Assembly: GCA_035327665.1 (NCBI GenBank)
Contig: DAOLCW010000003.1
Span: forward strand, 1,216-65,215
Direction of reading: 5' to 3'
DNA: 64,000 nucleotides
Source of the DNA: Kiritimatiellia bacterium
GTDB taxonomy: Bacteria > Verrucomicrobiota > Kiritimatiellia > CAIVKH01
Position numbers and translations under genes: made by a program. Shown here in pieces: positions 29,689 to 60,365 of the stretch. The notes beneath the pieces were generated by a model. It was given only the letters and a program-made list of their open reading frames with translations. It was not told the DNA's origin and did no database searches. Position 1 is the first letter of the stretch. Every line of letters starts with the position of its first letter.

Positions 29689-31155
29689 ATGATCTTTCAT
29701 CCGGGGCGGGATATTTCCTTGCGGCGTGTTTCCCTGTTGAGTGGGGATCTTGTCGCCATTGCCGGTTCGATCTGGTTGTCGGCGATCTTGAGGTTGGGAC
29801 TGGAGGAGGGTAGCGAATACATTCAGAAGCATGTTCCCTCCCTCGTCGGTTCTGCCGGTCTGATCCTTCTTTGTTTCTACGCCGGTGGTATGTACGAGCG
29901 CCAGGCTTTAACCCGCAAAAGCCAAAGTTATCGATTGCCCTTGGTTACGGTGGTTCTCTCCATGATGTTGATTGTCGTGGCGTTTTATGCCAAGGCCGAC
30001 TATCAAATCGGTCGGGGAATTTTGCTGCTTGCGGGAGTGTTTGTATTTCTGGCCTCTTGGTTGATGCGGCACATGTACAGCCTCGCGGTGGGTCAGGGAT
30101 TGCTTTCCAAAAACACCTTGGTGGTCGGTGAAGGCCGCCCGGCTCATGAAGTGGTCCGGTTGATATCCGCCACTCCAGATGCCGGCTTCAAGGTTCTTGG
30201 TGTAGTCTCTAGCAAACGGGTACCTCCGGGAACCTTTGTCGGACCGGTTCCGGTGGTTGGGACCACGGATAGTTTGCGTGAATTGGTGGACGCGTTTGAA
30301 GCAGAAACCGTGGTGGTGGCTTCTTCCATGGCCCGGGAGCCTGCGTTGCTTCGGCTGCTTCGCCCCTTGCGATGCAGTGGCACCGAGGTGTTGGATTACA
30401 TTGCCATTCACGAACTGCTTTCGCAGGAGATCCCCCTGGATCATGTGAATGATGAATGGTTGATGAATGCGGCCATGAACGGTTCGGTCATCCACATCCG
30501 GAAGATCAAACGGATTATGGATGTCGCGGCGGCGGTGGTGGGGCTGATCCTTACCGCTCCGATTCTGCTTGTGGCCGCCGCTTTGGTGCGGGTGGATTCC
30601 CCGGGACCGATTTTGTACCGCCAGCGACGCTCGGGCCTGGACGGACGGGTGTTCACCTTGATCAAGTTCCGGACGATGCGAGAGGATGCGGAATCGGGAA
30701 CAGGGGCGGTCTGGGCGGATGCGCGGGACTCCCGGGTTACTCGAACCGGGCACTTCTTTCGCAAATGGAGAATTGATGAGCTACCGCAACTGTGGAATGT
30801 ATTGAACGGGGACATGAGTCTGGTCGGGCCGCGTCCGGAACGCCCGGAATTTGTGGAAACCCTTTCCTCCGCAATCCCCTTTTACAAGGAGCGTTTGCAT
30901 GTTCCGCCGGGTATTACCGGGTGGGCTCAAGTGAAGTATCCCTACGCAGCGAGTATCGATGCCGCCCGTCGCAAACTTCAGTTTGACCTGTATTACATCA
31001 AGCACATGGGATTTTTTCTGGACACAATGATCGTCCTGCGCACCGTGAAATCCATTCTTGTCGGGCTTCGCCATCATGCCGATGAAGATGCTGGGGGGGG
31101 CTCTACCCGGACGACCTCCCCGGAATCGACGACGGTGTCCAAAGCCCGTGCGTGA
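29689..31155 (+). CDS. exopolysaccharide-initiating polyprenyl-phosphate glycosylphosphotransferase (WbaP/EpsB-type bacterial sugar transferase)
   Basis: 488 aa with N-terminal TM helices. Motifs: KRIMDVAAAVVGLILTAPI, LIKFRTM, DELPQLWNVLNGDMSLVGPRPERPEF. Confidence 0.9.
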   Translation: MIFHPGRDISLRRVSLLSGDLVAIAGSIWLSAILRLGLEEGSEYIQKHVPSLVGSAGLILLCFYAGGMYERQALTRKSQSYRLPLVTVVLSMMLIVVAFYAKADYQIGRGILLLAGVFVFLASWLMRHMYSLAVGQGLLSKNTLVVGEGRPAHEVVRLISATPDAGFKVLGVVSSKRVPPGTFVGPVPVVGTTDSLRELVDAFEAETVVVASSMAREPALLRLLRPLRCSGTEVLDYIAIHELLSQEIPLDHVNDEWLMNAAMNGSVIHIRKIKRIMDVAAAVVGLILTAPILLVAAALVRVDSPGPILYRQRRSGLDGRVFTLIKFRTMREDAESGTGAVWADARDSRVTRTGHFFRKWRIDELPQLWNVLNGDMSLVGPRPERPEFVETLSSAIPFYKERLHVPPGITGWAQVKYPYAASIDAARRKLQFDLYYIKHMGFFLDTMIVLRTVKSILVGLRHHADEDAGGGSTRTTSPESTTVSKARA

Positions 31156-31691
31156 ACATGAGGGAAGAAGACCGGATAGAATCTGTCCTCCCCGTGCCAT
31201 TTGGGGGCCGGGCATGGTGGGTCCTGCATGTGCGACCGCGCTGTGAGAAGAAGGTTGCGGATGCGGTCACGCGTCGGGGTGGACTTTCCTACCTTCCCTT
31301 GCTGACCCGTAAACATCGCTATGGAACCCGTAAACGTATCTATCATGTCCCCCTGTTCCGGGGCTATGTCTTTGCCTTGTTGGACCCAATAAACACCTCG
31401 TGGTGTCGTCAAAACGACCAGGTCGCCAACGTCCTCGAGGTTGCCGATCAACAACCCTTGGTCGATCAGCTTCGCCAGCTTTATCAGGCCTTGGCCGTGG
31501 GGGAAGTCGTTGAGGTTCTGCCCTTCCTTCAAGTGGGTAAACGTGTGCGGATCACGTATGGACCCTTTAAGGATCTGGAAGGACTCGTTGTCCGGGTCAA
31601 GAATTCCACCCGGGTCGTTTTGCAGGTGGAGATGATTCAGCAATCGGTGGTGTTTGAGGCGGATAGCGAGTTGTTGGAGCCGGGGAGTTAA
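31152..31691 (+). CDS. NusG-paralogue transcription antiterminator (UpxY/RfaH-like)
   Basis: 179 aa. NGN-like WWVLHVRPRCEKKV...PLFRGYVF and KOW-like GKRVRITYGPFKDLEGLVVRV. The start (GTG 31152 or ATG 31158) overlaps the upstream stop. Confidence 0.8.
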   Translation: MNMREEDRIESVLPVPFGGRAWWVLHVRPRCEKKVADAVTRRGGLSYLPLLTRKHRYGTRKRIYHVPLFRGYVFALLDPINTSWCRQNDQVANVLEVADQQPLVDQLRQLYQALAVGEVVEVLPFLQVGKRVRITYGPFKDLEGLVVRVKNSTRVVLQVEMIQQSVVFEADSELLEPGS

Positions 31692-33514: not shown

Positions 33515-34006
33515 ATGAAAACAGGTGATCAGGCTGTTTCCGACGCCCTCTGGCAAATGATCGAAGCCGGGGGTAGAACCTCGCAAACGTTCGGGCTAAG
33601 TCGTTTGCTCGGACAGATCTACACATTGCTTTATTTGAAGTCAGACCCTCTCTCTCTCGACGAAATCGTCAACGAGCTGGAAGTGAGCAAGGCCAGTGTA
33701 AGCGTGGCCTGCCGCCAACTTCAATCGTTTGGTGCGGTCAAGCGGTCGACTCGAAAAGGGGACCGGCGGGATTTTTACGAAGCGGTTCAAGATGTGCGGG
33801 GTCTGATTCAAAATGGGCTGTTGCCGGCCATTGAGAAGAAACTCGACTCGGCCCGGATTCAGATCGAACAGTGTTTGGCCATGCTGGAAGCTGCGGATGG
33901 TAACCCCCGGGCGGAACAGCTTCGAACTCGACTTCATGAAGCGGAAAAACGCCGGGCCAAGATGGATAAGTTGCTGCGCAATCCATTGGTCCGCAGTATG
34001 TTGTGA
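33515..34006 (+). CDS. GbsR/MarR-family winged-helix transcriptional regulator
   Basis: 163 aa. SRLLGQIYTLLYLKSDPLSLDEIVNELEVSKASVSVACRQLQSFGAVKR is a typical wHTH of the GbsR/MarR type. Confidence 0.75.
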   Translation: MKTGDQAVSDALWQMIEAGGRTSQTFGLSRLLGQIYTLLYLKSDPLSLDEIVNELEVSKASVSVACRQLQSFGAVKRSTRKGDRRDFYEAVQDVRGLIQNGLLPAIEKKLDSARIQIEQCLAMLEAADGNPRAEQLRTRLHEAEKRRAKMDKLLRNPLVRSML

Positions 34007-34138
34007 CCTGTTATGTAGGTTGCCTTCACGATGTGGGCAAGCCTGACAAGTGAGCAAGGCCGGGTTGGGCTCGATCCCGCGAAAGCGGTTCGGGACGCGA
34101 CGGGGACGAAGTCTGCCGCCGCCTATGGCGGCGGAAGA

Positions 34139-34212
34139 GTGACAAGGTGGCAAGGGCAAAGGGTAACAAGGGGGCAGGGGAGCAAGGTATCAAGGGGACA
34201 GAGTGGCAAGAG
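34139..34212 (+). repeat. purine-rich degenerate octamer array (GGCAAGGG / GTAACAAGG / GAGCAAGG words)
   Basis: Read directly from the sequence. A CCGCCGCC-TAT-GGCGGCGG hairpin precedes it at 34116-34134. Segment 34160-34171 is the exact complement of 35484-35495. Confidence 0.85.
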
Positions 34213-34234
34213 AGCAATGTAATGGGCGAGTCCG

Positions 34235-34783
34235 GTGACGTTTCTTGAAATGTTGCAGGTTGCTTCGGATGCCTTCGAAACGGAAGGCGTTCAGTGCTTG
34301 CTGATCGGGGGATTGGCGGTCAATTACCATGGGTATAGCCGCAATACGCAGGATATTGATTTCATGGTGGCAGCGGTTGAACTTGATCGCGCCGATCGCG
34401 CGTTGAGAGATGCTGGATTTTCCAATGTGGAGCGAAGGCCCAACGTCGTTTTTTTCAGAAGGCCCGATGATGACCTGCGGCTGGATGTTCTGCATGTAGA
34501 GGAGGAGACATTCAAACAACTTTGGTCATCTTCTTTAACGATACATCCATCAGGCCATGCCCTTCGAATTCCGTGCCTTGAACATTTACTGGCCATGAAA
34601 CTATTTGCCTTGAAGACCAGTTGGGACCGGCGAGTTGCCAAGGATCTTCCCGACATCGCCAATCTCATCGTGATCAATGGGTTGGATATGAACGCCGTCT
34701 TGCGTCCATTATGTCATCGTTTTGCCGATGAGCAGATCTACGGTCGAATTGCTGATGAAGTGAAAAAGCTTGGCGGGTGCTGA
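34235..34783 (+). CDS. minimal nucleotidyltransferase-fold protein (MNT / DUF6036-like), cassette copy 1
   Basis: 182 aa. NTase signature LIGGLAVNYHGYSRNTQDIDF (GG...DxD). Alternative start at ATG 34250. Confidence 0.6.
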   Translation: MTFLEMLQVASDAFETEGVQCLLIGGLAVNYHGYSRNTQDIDFMVAAVELDRADRALRDAGFSNVERRPNVVFFRRPDDDLRLDVLHVEEETFKQLWSSSLTIHPSGHALRIPCLEHLLAMKLFALKTSWDRRVAKDLPDIANLIVINGLDMNAVLRPLCHRFADEQIYGRIADEVKKLGGC

Positions 34784-34975
34784 ATGAAGTTTGCCACACT
34801 GGATCATCAGGAATCCCCCCCGACAAGGGTGGACTTTATGCGCTGTCTCGAGTTTTGCGATTTCATGCGAACGCTCACGGATACGGAAAAGTTACGCAAG
34901 CAAAAGACGATGGAGAAGCAGATCGAAAAGGCGTTTACGATAAAAGGATGGAACGGGGGCAAGGGAACAAGGTAA
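34784..34975 (+). CDS. small ORF coupled (TGAATG) to NTase copy 1; hypothetical
   Basis: 63 aa. The start directly follows the NTase stop. Its 3' end is encoded by the octamer array, so the coding status is doubtful. Confidence 0.3.
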   Translation: MKFATLDHQESPPTRVDFMRCLEFCDFMRTLTDTEKLRKQKTMEKQIEKAFTIKGWNGGKGTR

Positions 34976-34994
34976 CAATGGAACAGGGGACAAG
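34946..34994 (+). repeat. purine-rich octamer array, second copy
   Basis: GGATGGAACGGGGGCAAGGGAACAAGGTAACAATGGAACAGGGGACAAG. Segment 34958-34972 is the exact complement of 35557-35571. Confidence 0.85.
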
Positions 34995-35022
34995 AAATAC
35001 ATAAATTGAACAAGGAGTGGTC

Positions 35023-35448
35023 ATGGTACAGAAGTTTGAGGAGTTGGATTGCTGGCAGGTAGCTCGGGAGTTGACCCGGGAAGTTTATTCCCTCACCGCA
35101 GGTGATGCTTGTCGAAGAGACTTCGGGTTTGTGGATCAGTTCCGTCGCGCCTCGGTTTCCATCATGAACAATGTCGCGGAAGGTTTTGAGCGGGGATCGG
35201 ATAAAGATTTTGTGAAATTTCTGTATATCGCCCGGGCTTCGGCAGGAGAAGTCCGCAGCATGACCTATGTGGGATTAGACCAAAACTATTTAAGCGAATC
35301 AGACTTCCAGAAATTACAGGATCTCTGCCGTCGTAGTAGCGCCCTGTGCTGGGGTCTCATCAAGAGCAAGAAATCCAATCTTGGCCTTGCCTCCAAACTC
35401 TCCCTGCTTCTCTTCACCGCCCTCATCCCCTTGCTGTATCGGACCTGA
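35023..35448 (+). CDS. four-helix-bundle protein (23S rRNA intervening-sequence protein family; Avd-like fold)
   Basis: Start ATG 35023, preceded by AAGGAG. Family hallmarks: FEELDCWQVARELTREVY, QFRRASVSIMNNVAEGFERGSDKDFVKFLYIARASAGEV. Confidence 0.85.
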   Translation: MVQKFEELDCWQVARELTREVYSLTAGDACRRDFGFVDQFRRASVSIMNNVAEGFERGSDKDFVKFLYIARASAGEVRSMTYVGLDQNYLSESDFQKLQDLCRRSSALCWGLIKSKKSNLGLASKLSLLLFTALIPLLYRT

Positions 35449-35457
35449 CTCTGAGAC

Positions 35458-35600
35458 TCCCTTGCTACCTTTCCCCTTTGCCACCTTGTTACCCTGCTCC
35501 CCCTGCCACCTTGCTACCCTTCTCCCTTGCCACCCTGCACCCTTGCAACCTTGTCCCCTTGTTCCCTTGCCACCTTTCCCCCTTGTAACCCTGTTCCCTT
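35458..35600 (+). repeat. 143-nt pyrimidine-rich octamer array (about 17 NNNCCYTG words), complement of the arrays at 34139-34212 and 34946-34994
   Basis: Reads CCACCTTG TTACCCTG ... CCACCCTG CACCCTTG CAACCTTG TCCCCTTG TTCCCTTG .... It ends 11 nt before the ATG at 35612. Confidence 0.9.
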
Positions 35601-35611
35601 CCTAATCTCCC

Positions 35612-36886
35612 ATGTCCCTCTGGGCCTTCAGATTTGTTTTGTTTTACCTGACCATCCTGCTGGTTCAGCCCCAGAATCGTTTTGTCATTCTGTGGCCGTT
35701 CCGAATTGCCTTGGTGTGTATGGCGTTGGCGTTCATCCTCCATGTTCTGTCTGCCAGTCAGGAAGGCCGCCCGATCATCCGTTTTGGACCGGCCACGATC
35801 ACCGCCTTGATTCTCATGGCGGTGTCCTGGCTTTCCAATCAGTTTGGGGTGTTTCAAGCCAGTAGTGGATGGAATGCCAATATCGACATCATTTGGAAGA
35901 ATGCTATTTGCTTAATTATGATTGAAGCGATGGCCACCACGGTGGAACGGGTGTGGGCGGTCTTCGGAACCATGTTGATGGCAACCCTGTGGTGGATCAA
36001 GGGGGGATTAAGGCTTTCGTCTGCGGGAGCGGTGTATGCGGGGGACCGTTTGATGGGTCCTGCGGTGGGGCTTGTCGAAAATCCGAATAGCTTTGCTTTT
36101 ATGATGACGCTGATGATTCCTATTTATCTCTACTTTTACCAAAACTCTCATATCAAGTGGATCAAGGGGGCCTATCTATTCTGCGCCCTTTCGGCGGTAT
36201 TTATCGCCCTGCAGACCGGGAGCCGAACCGGTCTTTTATGTTTGATTGCCGTGGGTGTGTTCATCCTTCCCAAATACGGAGCTAAATACAAAGGAACGCT
36301 GATTGCTGTGGGGCTTGCTGTTCCGATATTGCTGGGCTCGGTGGGCGCGATGAATCTCGAGCGTTACAAAACCATAGGTGACTCCATCTCTAATTTTTTC
36401 TCAGGCGCGCATGAGCAGATGGATCCATCCGAAATGAACGCGGATCAACACAGTGCTTGGGAGCGCAAGATGAAGAACAAGCATTCATGGGCGTTAATCT
36501 TAAGGTATCCGGTTTTTGGCGTCGGGGTAAATAAAAGTGATTCGATGCTTCCCGGTGAATTCGCGTTTGCGTTTGGTCAAGTACATAACGATTGGTTGTA
36601 TATAGGGGTCCAAATGGGGTTTATCGGCATGGGGCTGTATGCTTCGCTTATGATTTGTGTCTTCCTGTTCAGTTCGCGTATTCAGCGCGAAGCGAAAATG
36701 AACTGGCCAGCTTTATCAGACTTGGGGTGGACGATCAAATTGATGGGTGTGGTGTTTGTGGTTGGAGGGTTCTTTTCACCAATCGGCTGGAATCCACTAT
36801 TCATGGCCACGGCGGGGGCCTCCTCGGCGCTATGGCTCAATTACCAAAACAAGTCGTGGAACAAGGCGACGGAAAAATTCTATTGA
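35612..36886 (+). CDS. O-antigen ligase / Wzy-like polymerase family membrane protein
   Basis: 424 aa, polytopic. LQTGSRTGLLCLIAV motif and a large loop typical of the Wzy_C/O-antigen ligase family. Confidence 0.8.
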   Translation: MSLWAFRFVLFYLTILLVQPQNRFVILWPFRIALVCMALAFILHVLSASQEGRPIIRFGPATITALILMAVSWLSNQFGVFQASSGWNANIDIIWKNAICLIMIEAMATTVERVWAVFGTMLMATLWWIKGGLRLSSAGAVYAGDRLMGPAVGLVENPNSFAFMMTLMIPIYLYFYQNSHIKWIKGAYLFCALSAVFIALQTGSRTGLLCLIAVGVFILPKYGAKYKGTLIAVGLAVPILLGSVGAMNLERYKTIGDSISNFFSGAHEQMDPSEMNADQHSAWERKMKNKHSWALILRYPVFGVGVNKSDSMLPGEFAFAFGQVHNDWLYIGVQMGFIGMGLYASLMICVFLFSSRIQREAKMNWPALSDLGWTIKLMGVVFVVGGFFSPIGWNPLFMATAGASSALWLNYQNKSWNKATEKFY

Positions 36887-39054: not shown

Positions 39055-39125
39055 GACGGGATACGAGATACGGGATACGGGATAAGACAAAGACGATGGA
39101 CAATAGGCCATCGACAAAAGACACC
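39055..39125 (+). repeat. purine-rich heptamer array (GGGATAC / GAGATAC words) followed by GACAAAGAC / GATGGAC words
   Basis: Starts at the first base after the wzm stop. Segment 39058-39074 (GGGATACGAGATACGGG) is the exact complement of 40074-40090. Confidence 0.9.
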
Positions 39126-39249
39126 CATGGCCCGCTGACTGTCGACCATTGCCTGTTACCTCTCTTTCCTCGTAAGACGCAACTCGCATCTCTCATTCCA
39201 AATCTCCGGTCCCGTATTCTGAAGCACAAACCACAAATCATGTTTCCCG

Positions 39250-39756
39250 ATGCGTAATCACATCAAAGAAATATTATTCGCGCTTTCTGATGGCGGAGTT
39301 GAATACATTGTCGGGGGAGGGGTTGCCGCAGTGCTTCACGGAGTAGAGCGGGTAACGCTGGATATTGACATCGCCTTGAATCTGACGAAGGAAAACTTGG
39401 GTCGTTTCATTTCCGTTGTCAGTGGATTGGGCATGACGCCTCGGGTTCCTGTACCTCTCCCATCACTCGGAAATCCTGATGTCATTCGCATGATGGTACA
39501 TGAAAAGCATGCGCTGGTATTTTCGCTAATTGATGTGAATGAACCGCTTCGCTATCTTGATGTATTCTTGACCGAAGATTTAGCCTATCCGAATCTGCTC
39601 CCGCATTCCGACGTCGTTGCTATTGATGGTCGCGCTATTCGCATCATCGGGTGCGCGAAATTATTGGCCATAAAAAAGGCAATTCAGCCACCCCGCGACA
39701 AGGATGAATTGGACATTCGGTATTTGGAGAAATTACTTGCAGACAAGGGACTATGA
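39250..39756 (+). CDS. minimal nucleotidyltransferase-fold protein, cassette copy 2
   Basis: 168 aa. IVGGGVAAVLHGVERVTLDIDIA (GG...DxD). Related in layout to 34235..34783 and 58408..59136. Confidence 0.6.
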   Translation: MRNHIKEILFALSDGGVEYIVGGGVAAVLHGVERVTLDIDIALNLTKENLGRFISVVSGLGMTPRVPVPLPSLGNPDVIRMMVHEKHALVFSLIDVNEPLRYLDVFLTEDLAYPNLLPHSDVVAIDGRAIRIIGCAKLLAIKKAIQPPRDKDELDIRYLEKLLADKGL

Positions 39757-39946
39757 TTTCGGCCAAGCCGATGAGTGCGAACAGCTTCGTGCGCTGTTAA
39801 AGTCCTACTCCTCAGCAGACTTTGATGGCCATACCGATTTTGCCCAATTATCACCGTCACAGCGTCTAGACGCCTTGGCCAGTCTCGCGATCTTTATCAA
39901 GGAATGCAAAGGGAAGGCGGCAAAGACGAAAGACAATATGCAATAG
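39704..39946 (+). CDS. small ORF overlapping the 3' end of NTase copy 2; hypothetical partner
   Basis: 80 aa. Contains QLSPSQRLDAL, resembling ELTPEQRWRE in the small ORF next to NTase copy 3. Coding status uncertain. Confidence 0.3.
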   Translation: MNWTFGIWRNYLQTRDYDFGQADECEQLRALLKSYSSADFDGHTDFAQLSPSQRLDALASLAIFIKECKGKAAKTKDNMQ

Positions 39947-40026
39947 ACGAATGATCATAAGCAAAAGACGAAAAACTCTTGTTGCCAATTGCCCATCATC
40001 CATTGCCAATGAACTCTCTGACTACA

Positions 40027-40058
40027 GCACCAAAAACAACCTTCGGTTGTCACGGTGC
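40027..40058 (+). other. conserved leader hairpin, copy 1 (GCACC...GGTGC outer stem)
   Basis: GCACC (40027-40031) AAAAA CAACC-TTC-GGTTG (40037-40049) TCAC GGTGC (40054-40058), followed by GGGGCAAACCC. Confidence 0.55.
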
Positions 40059-40066
40059 GGGGCAAA

Positions 40067-40110
40067 CCCATAACCCGTATCTCGTATCCCGCATCCCGTA
40101 ACCCGGAACC
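40067..40110 (+). repeat. pyrimidine-rich heptamer array (CCCGTAT / CTCGTAT / CCCGCAT words) ahead of wzt
   Basis: Complement of 39055-39085. It ends 13 nt before the wzt ATG. Confidence 0.9.
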
Positions 40111-40123
40111 CGACACACGCCTT

Positions 40124-45777: not shown

Positions 45778-45779
45778 AC

Positions 45780-46014
45780 GATCGACGATGGACAAAAGAC
45801 ACAAAGCGAACGAAGACTGACGACGACGAGCGAAAGACGATGGGCTGTTCGACCTCGGACTTCTGACGACTGACTTCAGGCTTCCCATTTCCGGCTTGAT
45901 TCCTCAACCCGCATCCCCTGCACCAGAGACGGCCTGCGGCCACGGTGCAGAGCAAGCCCCGGCACCCGAATCCCATCGCGTATCCCGCATTGCGTTTCCC
46001 ACATCCCGTACATC
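45780..46014 (+). repeat. composite word-repeat spacer (GACAAAAGAC-type words, leader hairpin copy 2 at 45918-45950, CCCGTAT-type heptamers to the ATG)
   Basis: CTGCACC (45918-45924) AGAGAC GGCC-TGC-GGCC (45931-45941) AC GGTGCAG (45944-45950). The heptamer run 45964-46010 ends ...GTACATC ATG. Confidence 0.8.
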
Positions 46015-47253
46015 ATGAAAATCGGTCTTCTCACTCAGGAATATCAAAGCGCGGAACAGCGATATGGCGGGGTGGGGCGGGCATTTGAGAAGATGGCAGC
46101 CTGGCTAGCGGATCGCGGTCATCATGTGACGGTTTACCTTCAGGGCCGCGTCAGCTCTGAAACCCGGGAGAGCAATGGCGTGGTCGTGGTCCGAGTGGCG
46201 CCGGTTTCCCGTTTGCACTGGCGGCTGCAACCTTGGATACGTCGCCTTCCGCCCTTTCTGCGAGGGATGCTTTGGCACGCGGATCTCAATCGAGCGATGG
46301 TGAGCCGAATTCTTGCTGATGCCCAACGGGGAAGGATGGATGTAGTTCTTGCCAATCGGGGGGTTACTGCTCCCAGCTTGTTTCATCGTCGGCTTCTTCC
46401 GTCTGTGATCCGGGTTCAGCATTCCATGCCGAAGGCGTTGAGGGTGGAGAAACAGAGCGTGCGCCTGCTTGATCGATGGCTTCACTTGGCCGAGCAACGC
46501 TCGCAGCGCGCGGCGGATGCCTTGTTTTGTCCGTCTCATGCAGTCGCCTCCTATGTTGCTGCCCAGTTGGGGCGTGAGGTTCCGGTTATTCCGACACCGA
46601 TGTTCATTCCTTCACGAGCTGCCGTTTCGTGGGATGACCTACAAGAGCGTTTTCAGCTTCCTCCGCAGTATCTGATGTATTGGGGGAGCTTTCTTTTTTG
46701 CAAGGGGGTAGATATTCTTGTGGATGCGCTTCCCGCATTTTTGGAAGTCTGCCCGGATCATGGGGTTGTTCTGGTCGGAGGTCAAAAGTATGACGATCCG
46801 CTTCATGACCGGCTGGTTCAGCGCATTCATGCGCTCCGGGAGGAGCATCAAGGCCGGATTCGGGTTCTTGAAGGGCTCGATCACGATCAGCTGTTTCCCA
46901 TGATCGAGCATGCGGTAGCTGCGGTGCTTCCTTCCGTGTTCGACAACCTACCGAATACACTGCTGGAAGCGATGTGGCTGGGATGTCCGGTTATCGGCAC
47001 CCGGGGAGCCAGTCACGACGAAATCGTGGAGGATGGTGTCGATGGATTGCTTGTTGAGATGGGGGATCACAAGGGATTGAGCCGGGCCATGATTAAACTG
47101 GCTTCCCTGTCCGCAGAGGAGCGGGAAACGCTGGGTCGGGCTGGCGCCGCCAAGGTGCGACAGTATTGCGACCCGGACTCGGTGATGACGAGGATCGTTG
47201 AGCAATGTGAAACGGCAATCCGGCGTTACCGGAGATCCCATGGAGGAGGTTAA
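46015..47253 (+). CDS. glycosyltransferase family 4 (GT-B)
   Basis: 412 aa. LPSVFDNLPNTLLEAMWLGCPVIGT (E-x7-E region). Confidence 0.85.
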   Translation: MKIGLLTQEYQSAEQRYGGVGRAFEKMAAWLADRGHHVTVYLQGRVSSETRESNGVVVVRVAPVSRLHWRLQPWIRRLPPFLRGMLWHADLNRAMVSRILADAQRGRMDVVLANRGVTAPSLFHRRLLPSVIRVQHSMPKALRVEKQSVRLLDRWLHLAEQRSQRAADALFCPSHAVASYVAAQLGREVPVIPTPMFIPSRAAVSWDDLQERFQLPPQYLMYWGSFLFCKGVDILVDALPAFLEVCPDHGVVLVGGQKYDDPLHDRLVQRIHALREEHQGRIRVLEGLDHDQLFPMIEHAVAAVLPSVFDNLPNTLLEAMWLGCPVIGTRGASHDEIVEDGVDGLLVEMGDHKGLSRAMIKLASLSAEERETLGRAGAAKVRQYCDPDSVMTRIVEQCETAIRRYRRSHGGG

Positions 47254-47257
47254 ACCG

Positions 47258-49054
47258 ATGGCAACGCTTGCTATGATTGCGGTGATTACCCGAGAACATG
47301 AGGGACACCAGGTTCGGGCCCGTCTTCACGAGATGGCTGACGGCTTCAACGAGTTGATTCTGGTAGATGACGGAGTTGGGGCCTCTCTTGATCCTTTGAT
47401 CAAGGATCTAACGGAATGTTATGCATGTTTACGGGTCGTGCGCTACAGGAAACCGGCATTTTACCTTGGCTCCTGGAAGCCTCTCGTCGATGAACTCACA
47501 TCCGAGTTGGTCACCTTTTTGTCGCCATGCCTGATCCTTCGTCCGGATTATTACCGCCGAACGCTTGCCGCGTTCGAGCAACATCCAGCCTGCCGTTTGG
47601 CGTTTGGTGGAATCACGAATGGGGTGTATTCGGATGAAGTTTCCCAATTCGCTGAATCGGATGTTCACCGAATCAACCGCGAAAATTTCATCGACATGAT
47701 ACTTGCAACCACGGGCGCGCAAGGTTCCACGCCCGCGACTGCTGTTTTTCGTCGGGCAGACTTCATTGAATCGGGAGGTTTCCGATGGGAACTCGCAGGA
47801 GGGCATGGTTGGCCTCCCTTTTTAATCATCGGTTTGGGCGACGGAGCCATCTATCTCGGGGATGAATGCGGGATACGCCTTGGGGAGGATTGGTTCCCGG
47901 CGGTGTATGGCGAGACGCGTCCCCTTCGCGTATTGGATGATCTGGCCCGGATGCATCATGTGGTCAATGGTTACCATGCTACGGATGCCGTCGGCAAATG
48001 GCATCAGCGGATGAAAGACGCCTATATACATCATGTCTGCGAGCAGATTCACGCTCCCGCGATTCGCGTCAATAAAACCATGGATGCACTGTATGGGCCT
48101 GGTGGGCCCCGTCGTGGTCTTCTGGTGGCGATGGCCCAGCGCATGGTGGGATTATGTCGCAGGATCTTGGCAGGACGGATGTCGGTGACCCTGTGCGGGT
48201 ACAAGCCGGATGTGGAATGTTATGGGTGGATCAAGCCATCCTTTTCGTTCGGGGTTAATTGGCGCAACTTTATCCGGTCGAAGTACAATGAAGACCGGGT
48301 CGTGATCGCTCAACAAGATCTTCTGGATTTTCTGGAGGTCAAGAATTTTTCGGGAATGCGAGTGATGGATATCGGCTGTGGCAGTGGGATTCATTCGTTG
48401 GCAGCTTTACGCGCGGGCGCTGACGAATTGGTTTCGTTTGATTATGACTCGGCTTCCGTTGAGGCGACCCGGCGGCTTTTTGAGGATGAGGGTTCCCCTT
48501 CGCGATGGACCGTTTCGCAGGGCTCCGTACTCGATCCGGAGTTTATGGGGCGTCTTGCTCCCGCAGATCTCGTGTACTCCTGGGGTGTTCTTCACCATAC
48601 CGGACAGATGTGGGAGGCGGTGAAGGCTGCTGCACAACGAATGAAGCCCGATGGACTATTGTTTATTGCGTTGTACACCAAATGGCCGGGATCGGATGAT
48701 GCGGTACGTTTGAAGATCCGCTACAATCGGGCCGGATGGTTCCGGAAGCGCTGGATGGAGATGGTTCTGATGCGGGCCGGGGTGCCGGGAATATCTTATT
48801 TGTTTAAGGACCCCGGATTTTTCCTGGATCGACTGAAAGATAAGCTGACCTTGATTCGAACCTACCGCAAATTCCGCGGAATGAGTTTCTATCATGATAT
48901 TGTGGATTGGTTGGGGGGATATCCCTACGAAGATGCGACGGTGGAAGAAGTGGTATGGTTTTGTAAAACATTCTGTGCATTGACTCCGGTCAAGGTGCGA
49001 GATCGCGGTGGAAATCTGTGCTCCTACTATCTTTTCCGGAAGGGCAAGACGTGA
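47258..49054 (+). CDS. fusion protein: N-terminal GT2-like glycosyltransferase domain and C-terminal class I SAM methyltransferase domain
   Basis: Start ATG 47258, preceded by GGAGGAGG. N-terminal IAVITREHEG...LILVDDG, C-terminal MRVMDIGCGSGIHSLAALRAGADELVSFDYD. Confidence 0.7.
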   Translation: MATLAMIAVITREHEGHQVRARLHEMADGFNELILVDDGVGASLDPLIKDLTECYACLRVVRYRKPAFYLGSWKPLVDELTSELVTFLSPCLILRPDYYRRTLAAFEQHPACRLAFGGITNGVYSDEVSQFAESDVHRINRENFIDMILATTGAQGSTPATAVFRRADFIESGGFRWELAGGHGWPPFLIIGLGDGAIYLGDECGIRLGEDWFPAVYGETRPLRVLDDLARMHHVVNGYHATDAVGKWHQRMKDAYIHHVCEQIHAPAIRVNKTMDALYGPGGPRRGLLVAMAQRMVGLCRRILAGRMSVTLCGYKPDVECYGWIKPSFSFGVNWRNFIRSKYNEDRVVIAQQDLLDFLEVKNFSGMRVMDIGCGSGIHSLAALRAGADELVSFDYDSASVEATRRLFEDEGSPSRWTVSQGSVLDPEFMGRLAPADLVYSWGVLHHTGQMWEAVKAAAQRMKPDGLLFIALYTKWPGSDDAVRLKIRYNRAGWFRKRWMEMVLMRAGVPGISYLFKDPGFFLDRLKDKLTLIRTYRKFRGMSFYHDIVDWLGGYPYEDATVEEVVWFCKTFCALTPVKVRDRGGNLCSYYLFRKGKT

Positions 49055-49164
49055 CGCAACGCGGTGTTTCACCGCGTTGCGAACGTGGCAGCCCCGTTTG
49101 GATGCGGCTCCGCCGCATCCATCACGGCCGCGAAGCGGCGGATTATTCACGTTCGTGAATAATC
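49055..49164 (+). other. three consecutive perfect palindromic hairpins directly after the stop codon
   Basis: 12-bp stem at 49055-49081 (CGCAACGCGGTG TTT CACCGCGTTGCG). 10-bp stem at 49099-49121 (TGGATGCGGC TCC GCCGCATCCA). 24-nt palindrome at 49141-49164 (GATTATTCACGTTCGTGAATAATC). None has a U-tract. Confidence 0.85.
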
Positions 49165-49222
49165 AGGGCTAACCTTCTGATCTTGTCGTGTCCTGACCCC
49201 ATAACCCTCCTTTTTCCTGATT

Positions 49223-51013: not shown

Positions 51014-51513
51014 AGACGGAGGAGCGCAGACGAAAGAAAGACTGAAGACGGAGGATGGTTGTCGATAAAGTTTACGACAAAGCTTCCGACAAAGATGGGA
51101 AATGGGGAACAAGGTAGCAAGGTTGCAAGGGTTCAGGGGAAGTGATTCAGTATCCCAAACTTTGTGTTGAACTTAATCCTGTTGCGGTATGGGGGACAAA
51201 GTATGACCGAATACGAGTAGACGACGTGTGACCACGTTGCCACCTTGCACCCTTGTTACCCTGCACCCTTTTCACCTATGCTTCGCTCCGAAGACGGAGC
51301 TTCCACCGTTGACCTCCGGGCTATGGCGGACAAGACGCAGGGCAAGCCAAGAACCAAGCACCAAACACTCGTATCCCCAGCACCAGAGACTCCCTTCGGT
51401 CGTCGCGGTGCGGGGCAGGCCCGAATCCCGTATCCCGCAACCCGCATCCCGTATCTCGTAACCCGAATCCCGTATCCCGCATCTCGTATCCCGTATCTCG
51501 CATCCCGCCCCCC
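51014..51513 (+). repeat. dispersed composite intergenic element, copy 1 (full length)
   Basis: Order along the element: CGACAAAG words, purine octamer arm (51095-51140), unique core (51141-51235), pyrimidine arm (51236-51272). Then GCTCCG-AAGA-CGGAGC hairpin, 24-mer 51321-51344, leader hairpin 51380-51411, and 12 heptamers (51427-51510) up to the ATG. Confidence 0.85.
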
Positions 51514-52929
51514 ATGCTGTTTAATTCCATCGATTTTGTTTTGTTTTTTGCCGTCGTGTACGGCCTGTACCTGGTCTTGCGGCATCGGGCACAAAACTGG
51601 CTGCTGCTGGGGGCCAGCTATTTCTTCTACGGATGCTGGGACTGGCGGTTTCTTTCCCTTATCCTGATTTCCACCCTGGTGGACTACGTTTGCGGGTTAA
51701 AGATCCATGAAGCGACGCGCCCGGGAACACGGCGAGGATTTCTGGTCCTCAGCATGGTCAGCAACCTGGGGTTGCTGTTCTTTTTTAAATATTTCGGTTT
51801 TTTCGCGGAAAGCGCCCAGGTTTTGTTCCAGCGCCTGGGTATGGAGTTGGACTGGGTAACCCTGCACTTTGTGCTGCCCGTCGGCATCTCGTTTTATACG
51901 TTTCAGACCATGAGCTACACGATCGATATCTATCGCCGTGAGCTCAAGCCGACCCGCGACCTGCTCGACTTTGCCGTTTTTGTCGCGTTTTTCCCTCAAT
52001 TGGTGGCGGGGCCGATTGAGCGGGCCCGGCACTTGCTTCCTCAGGTTCAACTGCGGAGGGTTCTCACCTATCCCATGATTCGCGAAGGTTGCTGGCTGAT
52101 CCTGTTGGGATACTTCAAAAAAGTGGTGATCGCGGACAACATGGCCCCCCTGGTGGCCACGGTGTTCGATCATCCCGACCAGGCCTACGGGTTGTCCATT
52201 CTTGCTGCAACGGTGGCGTTTGCCTTTCAGATTTACGGGGATTTTTCCGGGTACACCGATATTGCCCGGGGAATCAGCAAGTTGATGGGTTTCGACATCA
52301 TGCTCAATTTCCGCATGCCGTACTTTGCCTTGAATCCCCAGGACTTTTGGAAGCGGTGGCATATCAGCCTGTCCACCTGGCTGCGCGATTATTTGTACAT
52401 CCCGTTGGGGGGCAACCGGGGCGGGACCGTCTTCACCTATCGTAATTTAACCTTAACCATGTTGTTGGGGGGACTGTGGCATGGCGCGGCCTGGCATTTT
52501 GTCGCGTGGGGGGCCTACCATGGGCTGTTGTTGGTCGGCCATCGTCTCCTCCTGCCCATCTTGTCCCTGATCCAGCCCACATCGCTGATCGGGCAGCGTG
52601 TCTGGCATTGGGTTCGTCTTACCGGTTTCTTCGGGTTGACCTGTTTCGGGTGGATGTTGTTCCGGGTTGAGTCGTTGGCCGATGTCCCGGTTTTGCTTTC
52701 CAACATCGTTCAGCCCTTTGCCTGGAATGGAAAGGTTGCCATGTTGACCATGGCGTGTCTTTTGCCACCGCTGCTGATTCTGGATTATTGGCAGGAAAAG
52801 ACCGGGGATTTGCTGGTGGTGAAGCGCTGGCCCGCGCCGGTGCGCCTAGCCACCTATGCTACCTTGTTCGCGTTCATTGTGATGACAGGCTGGGTGGAGC
52901 GTATTGAGTTCATCTATTTCCAGTTCTGA
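51514..52929 (+). CDS. MBOAT-family membrane O-acyltransferase (AlgI/DltB-like)
   Basis: 471 aa. WHISLSTWLRDYLYIPLGGNR with the catalytic His, plus GGLWHGA. Confidence 0.9.
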   Translation: MLFNSIDFVLFFAVVYGLYLVLRHRAQNWLLLGASYFFYGCWDWRFLSLILISTLVDYVCGLKIHEATRPGTRRGFLVLSMVSNLGLLFFFKYFGFFAESAQVLFQRLGMELDWVTLHFVLPVGISFYTFQTMSYTIDIYRRELKPTRDLLDFAVFVAFFPQLVAGPIERARHLLPQVQLRRVLTYPMIREGCWLILLGYFKKVVIADNMAPLVATVFDHPDQAYGLSILAATVAFAFQIYGDFSGYTDIARGISKLMGFDIMLNFRMPYFALNPQDFWKRWHISLSTWLRDYLYIPLGGNRGGTVFTYRNLTLTMLLGGLWHGAAWHFVAWGAYHGLLLVGHRLLLPILSLIQPTSLIGQRVWHWVRLTGFFGLTCFGWMLFRVESLADVPVLLSNIVQPFAWNGKVAMLTMACLLPPLLILDYWQEKTGDLLVVKRWPAPVRLATYATLFAFIVMTGWVERIEFIYFQF

Positions 52930-52984
52930 TGTGAAGGGATAAAGACGGAATCTCGCGCGGTAACCGCGAAACAAACGTCCTATT

Positions 52985-53500
52985 TTCAACACGGAGTGCA
53001 CGGAGGACACGGAGAAAGACAGAATGAAATCCTCTCCGTGGTCTCTGTGTTCTTCAGCGAAGCGGATGGTAGAATAAAGTTCAGATACGAAGACTTCCGA
53101 AGATCCGCATTGAAACAATGTTTTTCACCACGGAGTGCACGAAGGACGCGGAGAAAAAACAGAATGAAATCCTCTCCGTGGTCTCTGTGTTCTCCAGCGA
53201 AGCGGGTGGTAGAATCAAATTCCGATACGAAGACTTCCGAAGATCCGTATTGAAAAGATATTCTCCACCACGGAGTGCAAGGGGGACACGGAGAAAAAAC
53301 AGAATAAAATCCTCTCCGTGGGCTCTGTGTTCTCCAGCGAAGCGGGTGGTAGAATAAAGTTCCGATACGAAGACTTCCGAAGATCCGTATTGAAAAGATA
53401 TTATTTACCACGGAGTGCAAGGGGGACACGGAGAAAAAGCAGAATAAAATCCTCTTCGTGGTCTCTGTGCCCTCCAGCGAAGCGGGTGGTAGAATTAAGA
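52985..53500 (+). repeat. tandem array of about 3.7 units of a 139-140 bp repeat, each unit containing a long hairpin
   Basis: ACGGAGTGCA anchors at 52991, 53130, 53270 and 53410. In unit 1, CACGGAGA (53008-53015) pairs with TCTCCGTG (53033-53040), extendable with G-U pairs. Confidence 0.9.
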
Positions 53501-57807: not shown

Positions 57808-57859
57808 TGGACAGATTAGTTCGGGCGAACCCTCTGGGTGAGCCGCTAGGCAATCGTCG

Positions 57860-58230
57860 ATAGGCGATAGGCTATAGACGGATCAGGGATGTCGACAAGG
57901 CTTGCGACAAAGCTACCGACAAAGATGGGAATGGGGGGACAAGGTAGCAAGGTCGCAGGGGTACAGGGGGAGTGACTGCGTTTCCCAAACGTTGTGTTGA
58001 ATGTAGTCCTGAACAGTGTAGGCGACTACGTGTGACCAGCGTGTTCCCTTGCCACCTTGCTCCCTTGTTACCCTTCCCCCTTTTCACCCATGCTTCGCTC
58101 CGCGGACGGAGCTTCCGCCGTCGTCCGGCGGATGCCGGACTATGGCGGACAAGACGCAGGGCAGGCAAAGCACGAAGCACTCTTATCCCGTATCCCGCAT
58201 CTCGGATCTCGTATCCCGTCGCCGCACAAA
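57860..58230 (+). repeat. dispersed composite intergenic element, copy 2
   Basis: Colinear with 51061-51440. Shared anchors include CCGACAAAGATGGGA, CCCAAAC(T/G)TTGTGTTGAA, ATGCTTCGCTCCG. The 24-mer CTATGGCGGACAAGACGCAGGGCA is identical at 58140-58163 and 51321-51344. Confidence 0.85.
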
Positions 58231-58407
58231 CGACCCTCGCTTCTTTCTGATTGAGCCTTGCCGCTTCGCGAAGTACAGTTTCGTGCGTGAAATTTCCATG
58301 GATTGAAAGTGATGAGTGGCGGAGCTGGTACGAGTTAACGCCTGAGCAGCGCTGGCGTGAAAGTGAAAAACTGCGCGCATATTTTTTAGCTGCGGGAGGT
58401 TCCCTGA

Positions 58408-59149: not shown

Positions 59150-59470
59150 TGGGTGAAAGACAGAAGACGAAAGACAATAGACGGATCAGGGATGTCGACA
59201 AAGCTTGCGACAAAGCTCCCGACAAAGATGGGAAATGGGGGACAAGACGCAGGGCAAGCCCTTCGACAAGCTTCCTCCTTCGTCCGGCAGTTGCCGGACT
59301 ACGGCGGACTGATCGCAGGGTAAACCAAGCACGAAGCACCCACCTTCGCCGAGGCTACGGCGGGCAGGCCAAGCACGCGGCGAAGTCGCATCCCGAATCT
59401 CGCACCTGTCCTGCGAAGCCTCGGCGAAGCAGGATCCCGCATCCCGTAACCCGCCACACCCGATCTACTT
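59150..59470 (+). repeat. dispersed composite intergenic element, copy 3 (internally deleted), plus a 13-bp inverted repeat
   Basis: TAGACGGATCAGGGATGTCGACAA is shared with copy 2. GGGGGACAAG is joined directly to ACGCAGGGCAAGCC (59237-59260). CTTCGCCGAGGCT (59344-59356) pairs with AGCCTCGGCGAAG (59417-59429). Confidence 0.8.
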
Positions 59471-60283: not shown

Positions 60284-60365
60284 TTCCCGTAACCCGTATC
60301 CCCCATATCCCGAATCCAGAATCCCGCATCCCGTATCTCGCATCTCGTAACCCGTATCCCGCATC
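60284..60365 (+). repeat. pyrimidine-rich CCCGTAT-type heptamer array running to the start codon
   Basis: ...AACCCGT ATCCCCC .. ATCCCGA ATCCAGA ATCCCGC ATCCCGT ATCTCGC ATCTCGT AACCCGT ATCCCGC ATC, then the ATG at 60366. Confidence 0.9.

Follow-up and report, generated by a model that had tools for sequence, protein, structure and literature searches.

A four-helix-bundle gene between complementary word arrays in a polysaccharide operon: a candidate IVS-type element outside rRNA

The intervening sequences (IVSs) of 23S rRNA in Leptospira, Coxiella burnetii, and Brucella are transcribed within their host transcript and carry a PF05635 (S23p) open reading frame (ORF) in a loop closed by complementary ends, which in Coxiella form a 28-bp terminal stem that is cut by RNase III (PMC4990558). 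Such IVSs take the place of the tip of helix 9, 25, or 45, and after transcription RNase III cuts them out within the stem, the rRNA fragments not being religated. Both the function of S23p and the origin of the rRNA IVSs have been addressed by hypotheses only (PMC4990558). Here we describe a gene for a four-helix-bundle (4HB) protein of this family that lies between arrays of complementary words in the window, a 64,000-nucleotide stretch of contig DAOLCW010000003.1 from a Kiritimatiellia bacterium. As in the rRNA IVSs, a PF05635 ORF occupies a predicted loop, complementary ends form the predicted stem, and the whole would be transcribed within the host transcript. However, the host transcript here is a protein-coding operon rather than rRNA, the arms are 50–140-nt arrays of tandem 7–8-nt words rather than a unique stem of ∼28 bp, and the ORF is not decaying but intact, with strong conservation; cleavage by RNase III would apply to this locus by analogy only.

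Other described systems share parts of this arrangement. MITEs and REP/BIME elements with their RAYT genes likewise comprise gene-carrying and gene-less hairpins in operon spacers, with inverted-repeat arms, whereas the present locus, which does have inverted arms, has no transposase-like enzyme (a Pfam search returned no transposase domain) and, with arms of tandem words, no definable target-site duplication. The RNase III sites of T7 early mRNA are hairpins between cistrons that are short and unique and have no gene in the loop; the present locus shares with such intercistronic hairpins a long, imperfect duplex (here predicted) between cistrons that could separate messages and set their ends. 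Avd, the DGR accessory protein, has the same four-helix-bundle fold as 4HB, and among the called genes and Pfam matches of the ∼20-kb locus we found neither a reverse-transcriptase nor an integrase family near the 4HB gene. Unlike integron cassettes, which share one array with attC sites near an intI integrase, the units here are scattered through operon spacers and have arms made of tandem words. Intergenic arrays of 7-nt words in tandem, most of them in a single orientation, are known as STRR heptamers (Cyanobacteria) and TAACTGA repeats (Beggiatoaceae, Cyanobacteria, Bacteroidetes); they often run right up to start codons without a Shine-Dalgarno sequence and are distributed patchily across phyla (PMC4679880). 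The CCCGTAT arrays of the window behave like these repeats. TAACTGA-type repeats are almost only direct, with one indirect set in 170 (PMC4679880), whereas here a complementary pair surrounds a PF05635 gene; a search of that paper's text for these terms retrieved neither 23S nor any helix-bundle gene. Neither word arrays around PF05635 genes nor IVS-type elements outside rRNA are described in the full-text literature that we searched, from which subscription journals are mostly absent.

Arrays, genes, and predicted stem at 34.1–35.6 kb

As listed in Table 1, the coding strand carries purine-rich words in the arm upstream of the 4HB gene and their complements in the downstream arm. Tandem Repeats Finder and a repeat search delineated arrays of period 8, 16, and 24 at 34135–34210, 34960–34994, and 35460–35600. 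Repeat detection and coordinates thus bear out the original prediction of purine-rich arrays and a 143-nt complementary array that ends (35600) 11 nt before the Wzy-like ATG (35612), and sequence comparison confirmed the two exact matches quoted in it: 34958–34972 (GGCAAGGGAACAAGG) is the exact reverse complement of 35557–35571, as 34160–34171 is of 35484–35495. The left arm is split into an outer part (R1) and an inner part (R2) by an AbiEii-like NTase cassette, and the right arm (Y) spans both. The leader motif and the GC-rich hairpin that precede the left arm (34092–34134) may lie outside the element proper.

Table 1. Positions of the arrays, genes, and hairpins in the window.
Feature	Position	Strand	Description
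Leader motif	34092–34113	+	GGGACGCGACGGGGACGAAGTC; identical or nearly so in 5/5 orthologous operons
GC-rich hairpin	34116–34134	+	After the leader motif, directly 5′ of the left arm
Left arm, outer part (R1)	34135–34217	+	Purine-rich octamer words CAAGGKNN
NTase cassette 1 (NTP_transf_5/AbiEii-like)	34235/34250–34783	+	Pfam, gene call; inside the left arm
63-aa ORF	34784–34975	+	After the NTase; 3′ end enters R2
Left arm, inner part (R2)	34946–34994	+	Octamer words
Shine-Dalgarno-like AAGGAG	35012–35017	+	Predicted loop; 5 nt 5′ of the 4HB ATG
4HB gene	35017/35023–35448	+	PF05635 (E = 4.7e-32), TIGR02436 (1.7e-29); 141 aa
Right arm (Y)	35458–35600	+	143 nt, about 17 complementary words NNMCCTTG
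Wzy-like polymerase/ligase gene (Wzy_C)	35612–36886	+	Downstream context; leader is the Y array
Second unit	39056–40112	+	ACGGGAT ×4 (39056–84) and CCCGTAT (40065–40112) around NTase2
Empty hairpin e51	51105–51277	+	R words, 95-nt core, Y words; z = −1.9
Empty hairpin e57	57927–58088	+	R words, 73-nt core, Y words; z = −4.7

The 4HB protein scored 110.8 bits against PF05635 (cut-off 33.8) and contains RxxxSxxxNxxE, given as the conserved motif of the family (PMC3936711), with R42, S46, N50, and E53 invariant in the alignment of homologues. It has a conserved hydrophobic C-terminal tail and is under purifying selection. Its sequence relatives 2GSC (4.8e-13) and 2RLD (profile, 1.2e-8) were each deposited with five chains, and the solved relative XCC0516 has been described as a toroid (PMC4990558). 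Direct R-word repeats border NTase cassette 1 on both sides (direct score 20.5). The 63-aa ORF behind it gave no family match in a Pfam and TIGRFAM-type profile search; similar small ORFs follow the NTase copies in the related loci L007 and L011, as well as homologues of NTase2. The genes that flank the element are MarR-like and Wzy-like, and Rfam placed no rRNA in the window and returned no match to the arrays or the leader, either across the whole window at the gathering threshold or for 33950–35650 at E≤1. The Wzy-like gene has no Shine-Dalgarno sequence, and the right arm extends to near its start codon. Promoter and terminator sites between 33400 and 35800 were no more common than in shuffled sequence, with a single promoter-like site upstream of the MarR-like gene; because this signal does not rise above chance, we infer that the element shares the transcript of the operon. 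Other word arrays crowd the window's operon, including CCCGTAT before five start codons, CGACAAAGCTNN, AAGCACG, and 140-nt units.

Folding of 34100–35625 produced a nested, imperfect stem of ∼100 bp whose loop holds the 4HB ORF together with the Shine-Dalgarno sequence of that ORF. In the minimum-free-energy (MFE) structure, R1 pairs with the distal half of Y and R2 with its proximal part; the partition function gives 63 and 35 expected base pairs, respectively (about 98 in all), with 106 of the 143 nt of Y expected to be paired, nearly all to R1 and R2. The inverted-repeat score, a local alignment of the flanks, was 19.0 for the 4HB gene alone and 38.5 for the unit from NTase to 4HB, compared with 9.5–9.7±1.2 (maximum 15.5) in 300 shuffles and 7–9.5 for 20 core genes of the same operon. 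The predicted arm duplexes have energies of −76 and −126 kcal/mol, with z-scores of only −3.9 and −5.2 because purine-versus-pyrimidine composition alone supplies much of the predicted energy (still −58 to −98 kcal/mol when the right flanks are shuffled). The expectation that paired arms would complement each other better than random arrays of the same word family did not hold in the window, where arms from different loci are 77–88% complementary and arms of one locus 75–84%; in the window, pairing is therefore specific to the word family and not to the locus. The design that had been proposed, a stem with an ORF in its loop within an mRNA operon, is supported by the predicted fold and by its recurrence in orthologues and relatives (see below).

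Hairpins and units without the 4HB gene

The gene-less versions reported earlier near 51.1 and 57.9 kb are present as two hairpins in which R and Y words enclose a short core (Table 1). A tblastn search with 120 homologues recovered only the one 4HB gene and no remnant in either hairpin; the P0005 matches in tblastn are the 4HB ORF reading into array sequence. Folds of whole spacers (51014–51516 and 45778–46017) were not more stable than shuffles, and the hairpin modules alone stand out. A core common to empty hairpins across genomes was considered and discarded, as an empty hairpin in L007 has the same words around an unrelated core. The second unit encloses NTase2 and an 80-aa ORF (39250–39946) and no 4HB gene; its inverted score is 20.0, compared with 7.8±1.1 for shuffles, and its MFE fold contains 37 long-range base pairs. 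In a related genome (L101), the slot orthologous to this unit is occupied by a 4HB pseudogene, likewise enclosed by inverted arrays. Judged from sequence, the empty hairpins are plausibly derivatives of the 4HB element.

Orthologous operons and relatives across phyla

The layout is kept in four orthologous MarR-4HB-Wzy operons (L003/L010, L007, and L011), all of which show the order MarR, R words, 4HB, Y words, and Wzy ATG, while the sequence of the arrays turns over. The GC-rich hairpin between leader motif and left arm is retained in them with varying sequence, and in L007 and L003, too, the last R words supply AAGGAG or AAGGA. NTase cassette 1 is absent from L003/L010, reduced to a 45-aa remnant in L007, and present in L011. 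In L003, the right arm measures ∼115 nt and the left arm ∼35 nt; such a disparity, seen in some orthologues, implies that part of the Y array has a role or origin other than pairing. No empty orthologous site was found, with 5/5 orthologous operons occupied (the window included). The 4HB proteins are 72–85% identical among these operons, compared with 67–76% for MarR and 56–66% for Wzy, and since 4HB is better conserved than its neighbours it is not a recent insertion. We conclude from these comparisons that 4HB is, in this clade, an old operon resident that has been inherited vertically.

Inverted repeats (score ≥14) flank 62% of 77 4HB relatives, compared with 2.9% of 350 neighbouring genes (p = 7e-26) and 4.8% of short control genes; one Y1_Tnp gene among the controls is also flanked by inverted repeats. 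Long-range base pairs between the flanks in MFE folds have a median of 41 in relatives versus 10 in short controls (p = 3e-16). The arms consist of tandem 7–8-nt words that differ between loci and match within a locus, and for 28 of the 77 loci the left arm finds its best partner in the right arm of its own locus. Left arms are purine-rich in 43/48 loci, with a core, AARGT, that favours their sense strand 28:1, and core k-mers are enriched 7- to 18-fold. Cultured carriers include Geomesophilobacter sediminis Red875 (L049), with 35-nt near-perfect GTTCGACG arms, and Labilibaculum sp. K2S (L093). Where paralogous 4HB copies occur in one genome, their homology (76–78% nucleotide identity) takes in the arrays. 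The genes around 4HB and its arms belong to 141 families, including those of cas and ABC-transporter operons; a general link between 4HB and polysaccharide genes, which holds in eight PVC-clade contexts, was discarded given such diverse neighbours across phyla.

A search for conserved 23S/16S motifs placed none of the 77 relatives in an rRNA gene, and the window and L001–L100 contained no such motif except for two chance matches with 2 mismatches. The original prediction that the design would not be restricted to rRNA is thus upheld across many phyla. Because the design recurs both in orthologous operons and in 62% of relatives, it is a property of the gene family and no coincidence.

Two tests addressed selection for pairing specific to the sense RNA: the excess of sense-strand G:U (62) over A:C (48) among mismatches in the arms is not significant (p = 0.21), and the difference in duplex energy, −77.0 kcal/mol for sense versus −72.5 kcal/mol for antisense, is marginal (p = 0.039). 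Pairing alone does not require an AARGT core across phyla, and such a core may point to a protein that recognises it. The words fit CsrA-type GGA sites or anti-Shine-Dalgarno mimicry poorly, as they contain no constant GGA and take the form AAAGT in AT-rich lineages.

Possible roles of the arms and significance

We consider the chances about even that 34.1–35.6 kb is an IVS-type 4HB element in the intercistronic spacer of a polysaccharide operon. The zipped arms of the operon transcript would, by analogy with 23S rRNA IVSs, be a substrate for RNase III. Cleavage could free a message for 4HB (plus NTase) whose ends are paired and protected, and could part the MarR-like from the Wzy-like cistron, leaving the latter with a short pyrimidine leader. 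The 4HB-less hairpins at 51.1 and 57.9 kb and the arms around NTase2 would then be relics or non-autonomous copies. Several observations count against this stem model: the same design around the NTase2 cassette, with no 4HB gene; the lack of a significant G:U excess and the small energy difference between sense and antisense duplexes; the largely compositional duplex energy; the equal pairing of arms across loci in the window; the unequal arm lengths in some orthologues; and the AARGT core. More tentatively, and with less confidence than we place in the local assignment, PF05635 genes with inverted AARGT-word arrays might form a widespread class of autonomous elements, of which the 23S rRNA IVSs would be the special case that landed in rRNA. 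Members of such a class would have tandem words recognised by a pentameric 4HB protein and arms that zip in the host transcript, so that the insert is looped or cut out and tolerated by the operon; gene-less word hairpins would be non-autonomous derivatives, and the loops and arms would serve within operons as landing pads where NTase, toxin-antitoxin, and PD-(D/E)XK cassettes accumulate.

The recurrent core could instead mean that the arms work in DNA, as iteron- or TIR-like sites bound by a pentameric 4HB protein or as single-stranded DNA hairpins, for transposition, recombination, or cassette capture, with the pairing in RNA being incidental. A sequence-specific multimeric binder would fit the AARGT core, fixed polarity, and 7–8-nt period seen across phyla, together with the five chains in the deposited relatives; the absence of a clear G:U excess, the dispersed paralogues that carry their arrays along, the further cassettes within arms or loops, and the occurrence of gene and arms in unrelated contexts, cas and ABC-transporter operons among the 141 families (PMC3936711), point the same way. 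We nevertheless think this unlikely, as no fold or motif of a nuclease, transposase, or recombinase can be recognised in the 141-aa helical bundle, neither a target-site duplication nor a filled-versus-empty polymorphism was found, copies within a genome are old, as their nucleotide identity indicates, and the gene has kept one operon slot in this clade throughout 15–28% protein divergence. The same polarity and core could also reflect riboregulation of the kind known from TRAP, which binds (G/U)AG repeats. A toroidal 4HB pentamer would bind the left-arm AARGU words in mRNA, with CAAGGUNN repeats as its candidate RNA ligand, in competition with the stem; it might autoregulate its own translation, because the last word is its Shine-Dalgarno sequence, and binding would in addition control how accessible the leader of the downstream gene is, or how it is processed. 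A short core with variable spacer and fixed period on the sense strand only resembles the sites of ring-shaped RNA binders, and both the strand bias and the Shine-Dalgarno sequence embedded in the last R word agree with it, as do the pentameric solved relatives, among which XCC0516 is described as a toroid (PMC4990558), and the family relative Avd, which is reported to act together with an RNA (10.1101/2023.10.23.563531). This proposal is wholly inferential, however; it leaves the ever-present downstream complementary array unexplained unless joined to the stem model, and some arms (L003) contain fewer than five words, so that we rate it as improbable.

A more mundane account is that the arrays are host-wide intergenic short tandem repeats, comparable to the STRR or TAACTGA repeats and unrelated to 4HB, their complementarity arising from one word family in both orientations. 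The many other word arrays in the window's operon, the gene-less hairpins, the equal complementarity within and between loci, and the heptamer arrays that abut Shine-Dalgarno-less start codons in other phyla (PMC4679880) are what such repeats would produce. Yet inverted arrays flank 4HB genes far more often than genes of the same loci (62% versus 2.9%), their polarity is fixed and their core common, and the core genes of the window's operon score at background, which makes this account very improbable.

For the IVS-type reading, the significance lies in a question that has stood open since 1993, namely what the S23p/four-helix-bundle protein does and where the rRNA IVSs come from. In the 4HB subfamily, most copies are found away from rRNA yet remain bracketed by complementary tandem-word arrays of fixed polarity and conserved core, which turns an rRNA curiosity into a general, testable design. 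It predicts that the words are a defined nucleic-acid ligand of the protein, that the zipped arms form a defined RNA structure, and that processing occurs at defined sites. This design would explain how 4HB and other small selfish cassettes come to be scattered co-directionally in polysaccharide, ABC-transporter, and cas operons. Should the arms act on RNA to insulate inserts or cut them out, they would offer a reusable principle for operon engineering.

Anatomy of the 4HB element and its operon

The source contig of the window is a 154-kb metagenome contig (ENA ERZ794930 NODE_90), and the window's proteins have their nearest named relatives in Kiritimatiellia and Verrucomicrobiota MAGs. From ~24.8 kb onward the window carries a long, co-directional polysaccharide operon with genes for Poly_export, a GNVR/AAA_31 chain-length-regulator-type protein, Bac_transf, a NusG paralogue, methyltransferases, Wzy, ABC2/Wzt and glycosyltransferases. 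Between its MarR-like and Wzy-like genes lies the gene of a four-helix-bundle (4HB) protein, a clear PF05635/TIGR02436 member, flanked by a left arm of purine-rich words (outer array R1, inner array R2) and a right arm of complementary pyrimidine words (Y). The original prediction had described these arrays, the NTase cassette and the 4HB gene within 34116-35611, and all of its elements were borne out, including both exact matches between the arms.

Features of the 4HB element, its leader motif and related arrays (window positions unless a locus of a related genome is named)
Feature	Position	Remarks
MarR-like gene	33515-34006	upstream neighbour of the element
Leader motif (conserved) and GC hairpin	34092-34134	5' of R1
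Leader motif, L003	5912-5952	
Leader motif, L007	5730-5775	
Leader motif, L011	4035-4075	
R1	34135-34217	octamer words, purine-rich
AbiEii/NTP_transf_5-like nucleotidyltransferase (NTase)	34250-34783	63-aa ORF next
R2	34946-34994	second array of purine words
Shine-Dalgarno AAGGAG	between R2 and 4HB gene	
4HB gene	35023-35448	141 aa, PF05635/TIGR02436
Y	35458-35600	143-nt pyrimidine array, complementary words; 11 nt short of Wzy ATG
Wzy-like gene	35612-36886	downstream neighbour of the element
NTase2	39250-39756	with 80-aa ORF (unit 39250-39946), no 4HB gene; enclosed in 39056-40112 by ACGGGAT x4 and CCCGTAT heptamer arrays
CCCGTAT arrays	40065-40112, 45974-46010, 51420-51507, 58184-58219, 60285-60365	

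To score the inverted repeat around a gene, we aligned its upstream flank locally with the reverse-complemented downstream flank. Scores were 19.0 for the 4HB gene and 38.5 for the NTase-to-4HB unit, against 7-9.5 for 20 core operon genes and 9.5-9.7±1.2 (maximum 15.5) for 300 shuffles. The predicted fold of 34100-35625 is nested, with proximal Y pairing with R2 (35 expected base pairs), distal Y with R1 (63 expected base pairs), and 106 of the 143 Y nucleotides paired; in this model the inner loop would hold the 4HB ORF and its Shine-Dalgarno (SD) sequence, and the NTase cassette would form a large insert in the 5' strand. The length of Y approximates that of R1 plus R2, which fits a single ancestral left arm that was split by the NTase insertion. 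Because pyrimidine-rich sequence of any kind is a good pairing partner for a purine-rich strand, shuffled duplex controls are already very stable, and against them the arm duplex reached z-scores of only −3.9 to −5.2. The original reading of the region as an element resembling the intervening sequences (IVS) of 23S rRNA holds for the architecture, which generalizes beyond the window, but within the window the pairing of the arms is not locus-specific.

Homologues of the 4HB protein at 79-87% identity lie on syntenic contigs (loci L003/L010, L007 and L011) in orthologous MarR-4HB-Wzy operons, all of which carry CAAGG-type words before the 4HB gene and CCTTG-type words after it, reaching the Wzy start. 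Word order and number differ among these arrays, indicating that they turn over quickly, and the word-array design is retained despite this turnover. The NTase cassette is present in L011 and absent from L003 and L010, while L007 retains a 45-aa stump of it with an R array on either side; the NTase is therefore a secondary insertion into the left arm. Across these operons the 4HB protein is better conserved (72-85% identity) than MarR (67-76%) or Wzy (56-66%), which makes it an old gene, vertically inherited in the clade under purifying selection, rather than a fresh insertion. In L011 (5001-5430, equivalent to L023; Verrucomicrobia MAG GCA_024233345.1) the 4HB gene is frameshifted near residue 95 and represents either a pseudogene or an assembly error.

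Several further features accompany the element. The motif GGGACGCGACGGGGACGAAGTC, preceded by a GCCATGTTGCCCCG..CCCGG pairing and followed by a GC-rich hairpin of variable sequence, is conserved in each of the five orthologous operons at a position 5' of the left arm, and this leader region had no match in Rfam. The sole Rfam match in the window at gathering score, AaHKsRNA22 (49046-49180, in the spacer that precedes the 49223 gene), is probably spurious, given 41.4 bits versus a cut-off of 39.8 and an unrelated taxon. The NusG paralogue (31152-31691, NusG/KOW domains) directly precedes the array-rich stretch in the operon, suggesting dedicated antitermination of a long, structure-rich transcript. 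Residues ~120-141 of the 4HB protein (35380-35448) form a hydrophobic C-terminal tail (LASKLSLLLFTALIPLLYRT) that may be a membrane anchor; it is kept in many subfamily members, where homologues show a DWK-type motif before it, and is missing in others.

Complementary arms across the 4HB family

More distant homologues (50-68% identity) in other operons display the same design with other words, such as CGTAACACG / CGTGTCACG in L017 and GTTACAGG / CCTGTAAC in L018, and in L014/L016 two 4HB copies with this design share one operon. We searched one genome per species with a 32-sequence alignment and recovered 80 loci from Verrucomicrobiota, Nitrospirota, Bacteroidota, Planctomycetota, Patescibacteria, Chloroflexota, Desulfobacterota, Ignavibacteria and other groups, none of them in an rRNA gene. 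Relative to control genes from the same loci, 4HB genes had a higher median flank inverted-repeat score (16, n = 77, versus 8.5, n = 350; Mann-Whitney p = 7e-26), and 62% of them scored 14 or above, as opposed to 2.9% of controls (4.8% of controls of at most 650 nt). The ten high-scoring controls include another PF05635 gene, a Y1 transposase and at least one gene adjoining a 4HB gene. Minimum free energy folds of the ORF ±150 nt likewise contained a median of 41 long-range flank-flank base pairs for 4HB genes (n = 75), compared with 10 for short control genes (n = 97; Mann-Whitney p = 3e-16).

The arms have a median length of 35 nt and consist of tandem words with a period of mostly 7 or 8; ~26 nt separate the left arm from the start codon, and ~11 nt separate the stop from the right arm. 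The words vary between loci, and the best match of a left arm is its own right arm in 28 of 77 loci, which is covariation at the level of words. They share the core AARGT(T): counting pentamers present at least twice in a 120-nt flank, AAAGT occurs in 39% of flanks on the left and 26% on the right, versus 3.7% of control flanks, and AAGGT in 19% and 20% versus 1.1%. Polarity is also consistent, with a purine-rich upstream arm in 43 of 48 loci and sense-strand AARGT in the upstream arm by 28:1. Neighbouring genes are functionally diverse (141 Pfam families) and mostly co-directional: 65 of 75 upstream neighbours and 55 of 71 downstream ones share the orientation, for which the background rate is 73%. 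Where one genome has paralogous 4HB copies, their ORFs are 76-78% identical at the nucleotide level; for the L016 pair, homology also covers the upstream array and part of the downstream one.

Word hairpins and cassettes without a 4HB gene

Two "empty" hairpins in the window (51105-51277, fold z = −1.9; 57927-58088, z = −4.7) are built from the same words as the 4HB arms and share 81% identity over 146 nt in a repeat search; no 4HB remnant was detectable in either. L007 has an empty hairpin with the same words and an unrelated core. The NTase2 unit has an inverted-repeat score of 20.0 and 37 predicted long-range base pairs, and its relatives occupy the same ABC2-to-Wzt spacer. In L101 (87% identical), inverted GTGCTTG / CAAGCAC arrays in this spacer flank a 4HB pseudogene, and NTase2 is inserted in the right arm; in L105 (1209-5823), inverted GACCAC / GTGGTC arrays bracket a 4.6-kb island that has an intact 4HB gene at its left end and also contains MNT/HEPN, NTase2 and small ORFs; and in L102 (1301-3715) tandem word hairpins alternate with the PD-(D/E)XK, Phd/PIN and NTase2 cassettes that fill the slot. 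This lends indirect support to the view that gene-less arms can be leftovers of 4HB elements, and that other small cassettes accumulate in the arms and loops of such elements.

In related genomes (L102, L105 and L007, 701-1120), spacers of the same polysaccharide operons contain islands of small co-directional cassettes: 4HB, PDDEXK_3, MNT/HEPN, Phd/PIN and AbiEii-like NTase, together with numerous ORFs 55-140 aa in length. In the window, a third NTase-like cassette (NTase3, 58251-59136) appears broken by a stop between ORFs 58408-58542 and 58582-59136, and a Phd-like antitoxin and PIN-domain ORF (59503-60137) are probably a degraded toxin-antitoxin pair, since the antitoxin ends at 59736 and a stop precedes the PIN-domain ORF, whose start is not reached until 59802. 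A modular intergenic repeat occurs in three copies (51020-51520, 57850-58260, 59150-59470), assembled from GACGAAAGAC words, three CGACAAAGCTNN 12-mers, ATGGGAAATGGGG, a variable part, GGCGGACAAGACGCAGGGCA and AAGCACGAAGCAC; two copies carry the R-core-Y hairpin, which is precisely missing from the third (59.2 kb). The stretch 52983-53499 consists of 3.7 copies of a 140-nt unit (91% matches). CACGGAG words and their complement CTCCGTG occur in every unit, so the stretch is a tandem run of small word hairpins, and similar tandem units of ~110 nt lie between the cassettes of L102.

CCCGTAT heptamers and their variants form arrays in the spacers that precede core operon genes. Of these five arrays, four reach within 0-13 nt of a downstream start codon, where the genes have no Shine-Dalgarno sequence, and the array at 58184-58219 precedes the degraded NTase3 cassette; GGAG-type sites are present before genes in the window's first 30 kb. 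Heptamer arrays adjoining start codons have been described in other phyla (PMC4679880), and those of the window resemble the TAACTGA repeats of Beggiatoaceae, Cyanobacteria and Bacteroidetes reported there.

Related systems and models of arm function

The nearest characterized system is the 23S rRNA IVS, in which inverted repeats at the two ends pair into a stem, 28 bp long in Coxiella, that RNase III cuts in the middle, with the S23p ORF in the loop (PMC4990558). Of the four features that define an IVS, the 4HB element shares the stem and a loop ORF of the same family and lacks the location in rRNA; the fourth, excision by RNase III, would be expected by analogy. The called genes and Pfam hits of the ~20-kb locus around the 4HB gene include no reverse-transcriptase or integrase family, so the element is probably neither a DGR Avd module nor an integron cassette; with inverted arms and no transposase domain, it is also not a recognizable transposon. 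Genes of 23S_rRNA_IVP type are interspersed in cas operons (PMC3936711). In literature that leaves most subscription journals uncovered, so that an earlier description is possible, we found no account of complementary word arrays around PF05635 genes and no description of IVS-type elements outside rRNA.

By analogy with the 23S rRNA IVS, the arms probably pair in the operon transcript, and the duplex would probably be processed by RNase III. Such processing would free the 4HB message and leave a short pyrimidine leader for the SD-less downstream gene. Arm mismatches in sense RNA are G:U versus A:C at 62:48 (p = 0.21), and sense and antisense duplex energies differ at p = 0.039, a weak indication that pairing is selected specifically in sense RNA. 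The conserved core, fixed period and fixed polarity of the words are unexplained by pairing alone and point to their recognition by a conserved factor. These same properties keep a DNA-iteron model and a TRAP-like RNA-binding model live, as rivals of the arm-pairing model or as complements to it. The obvious candidate for a word-binding factor is the element's own 4HB protein, taken as a pentamer like its solved relatives 2GSC and 2RLD, which are five-chain assemblies.
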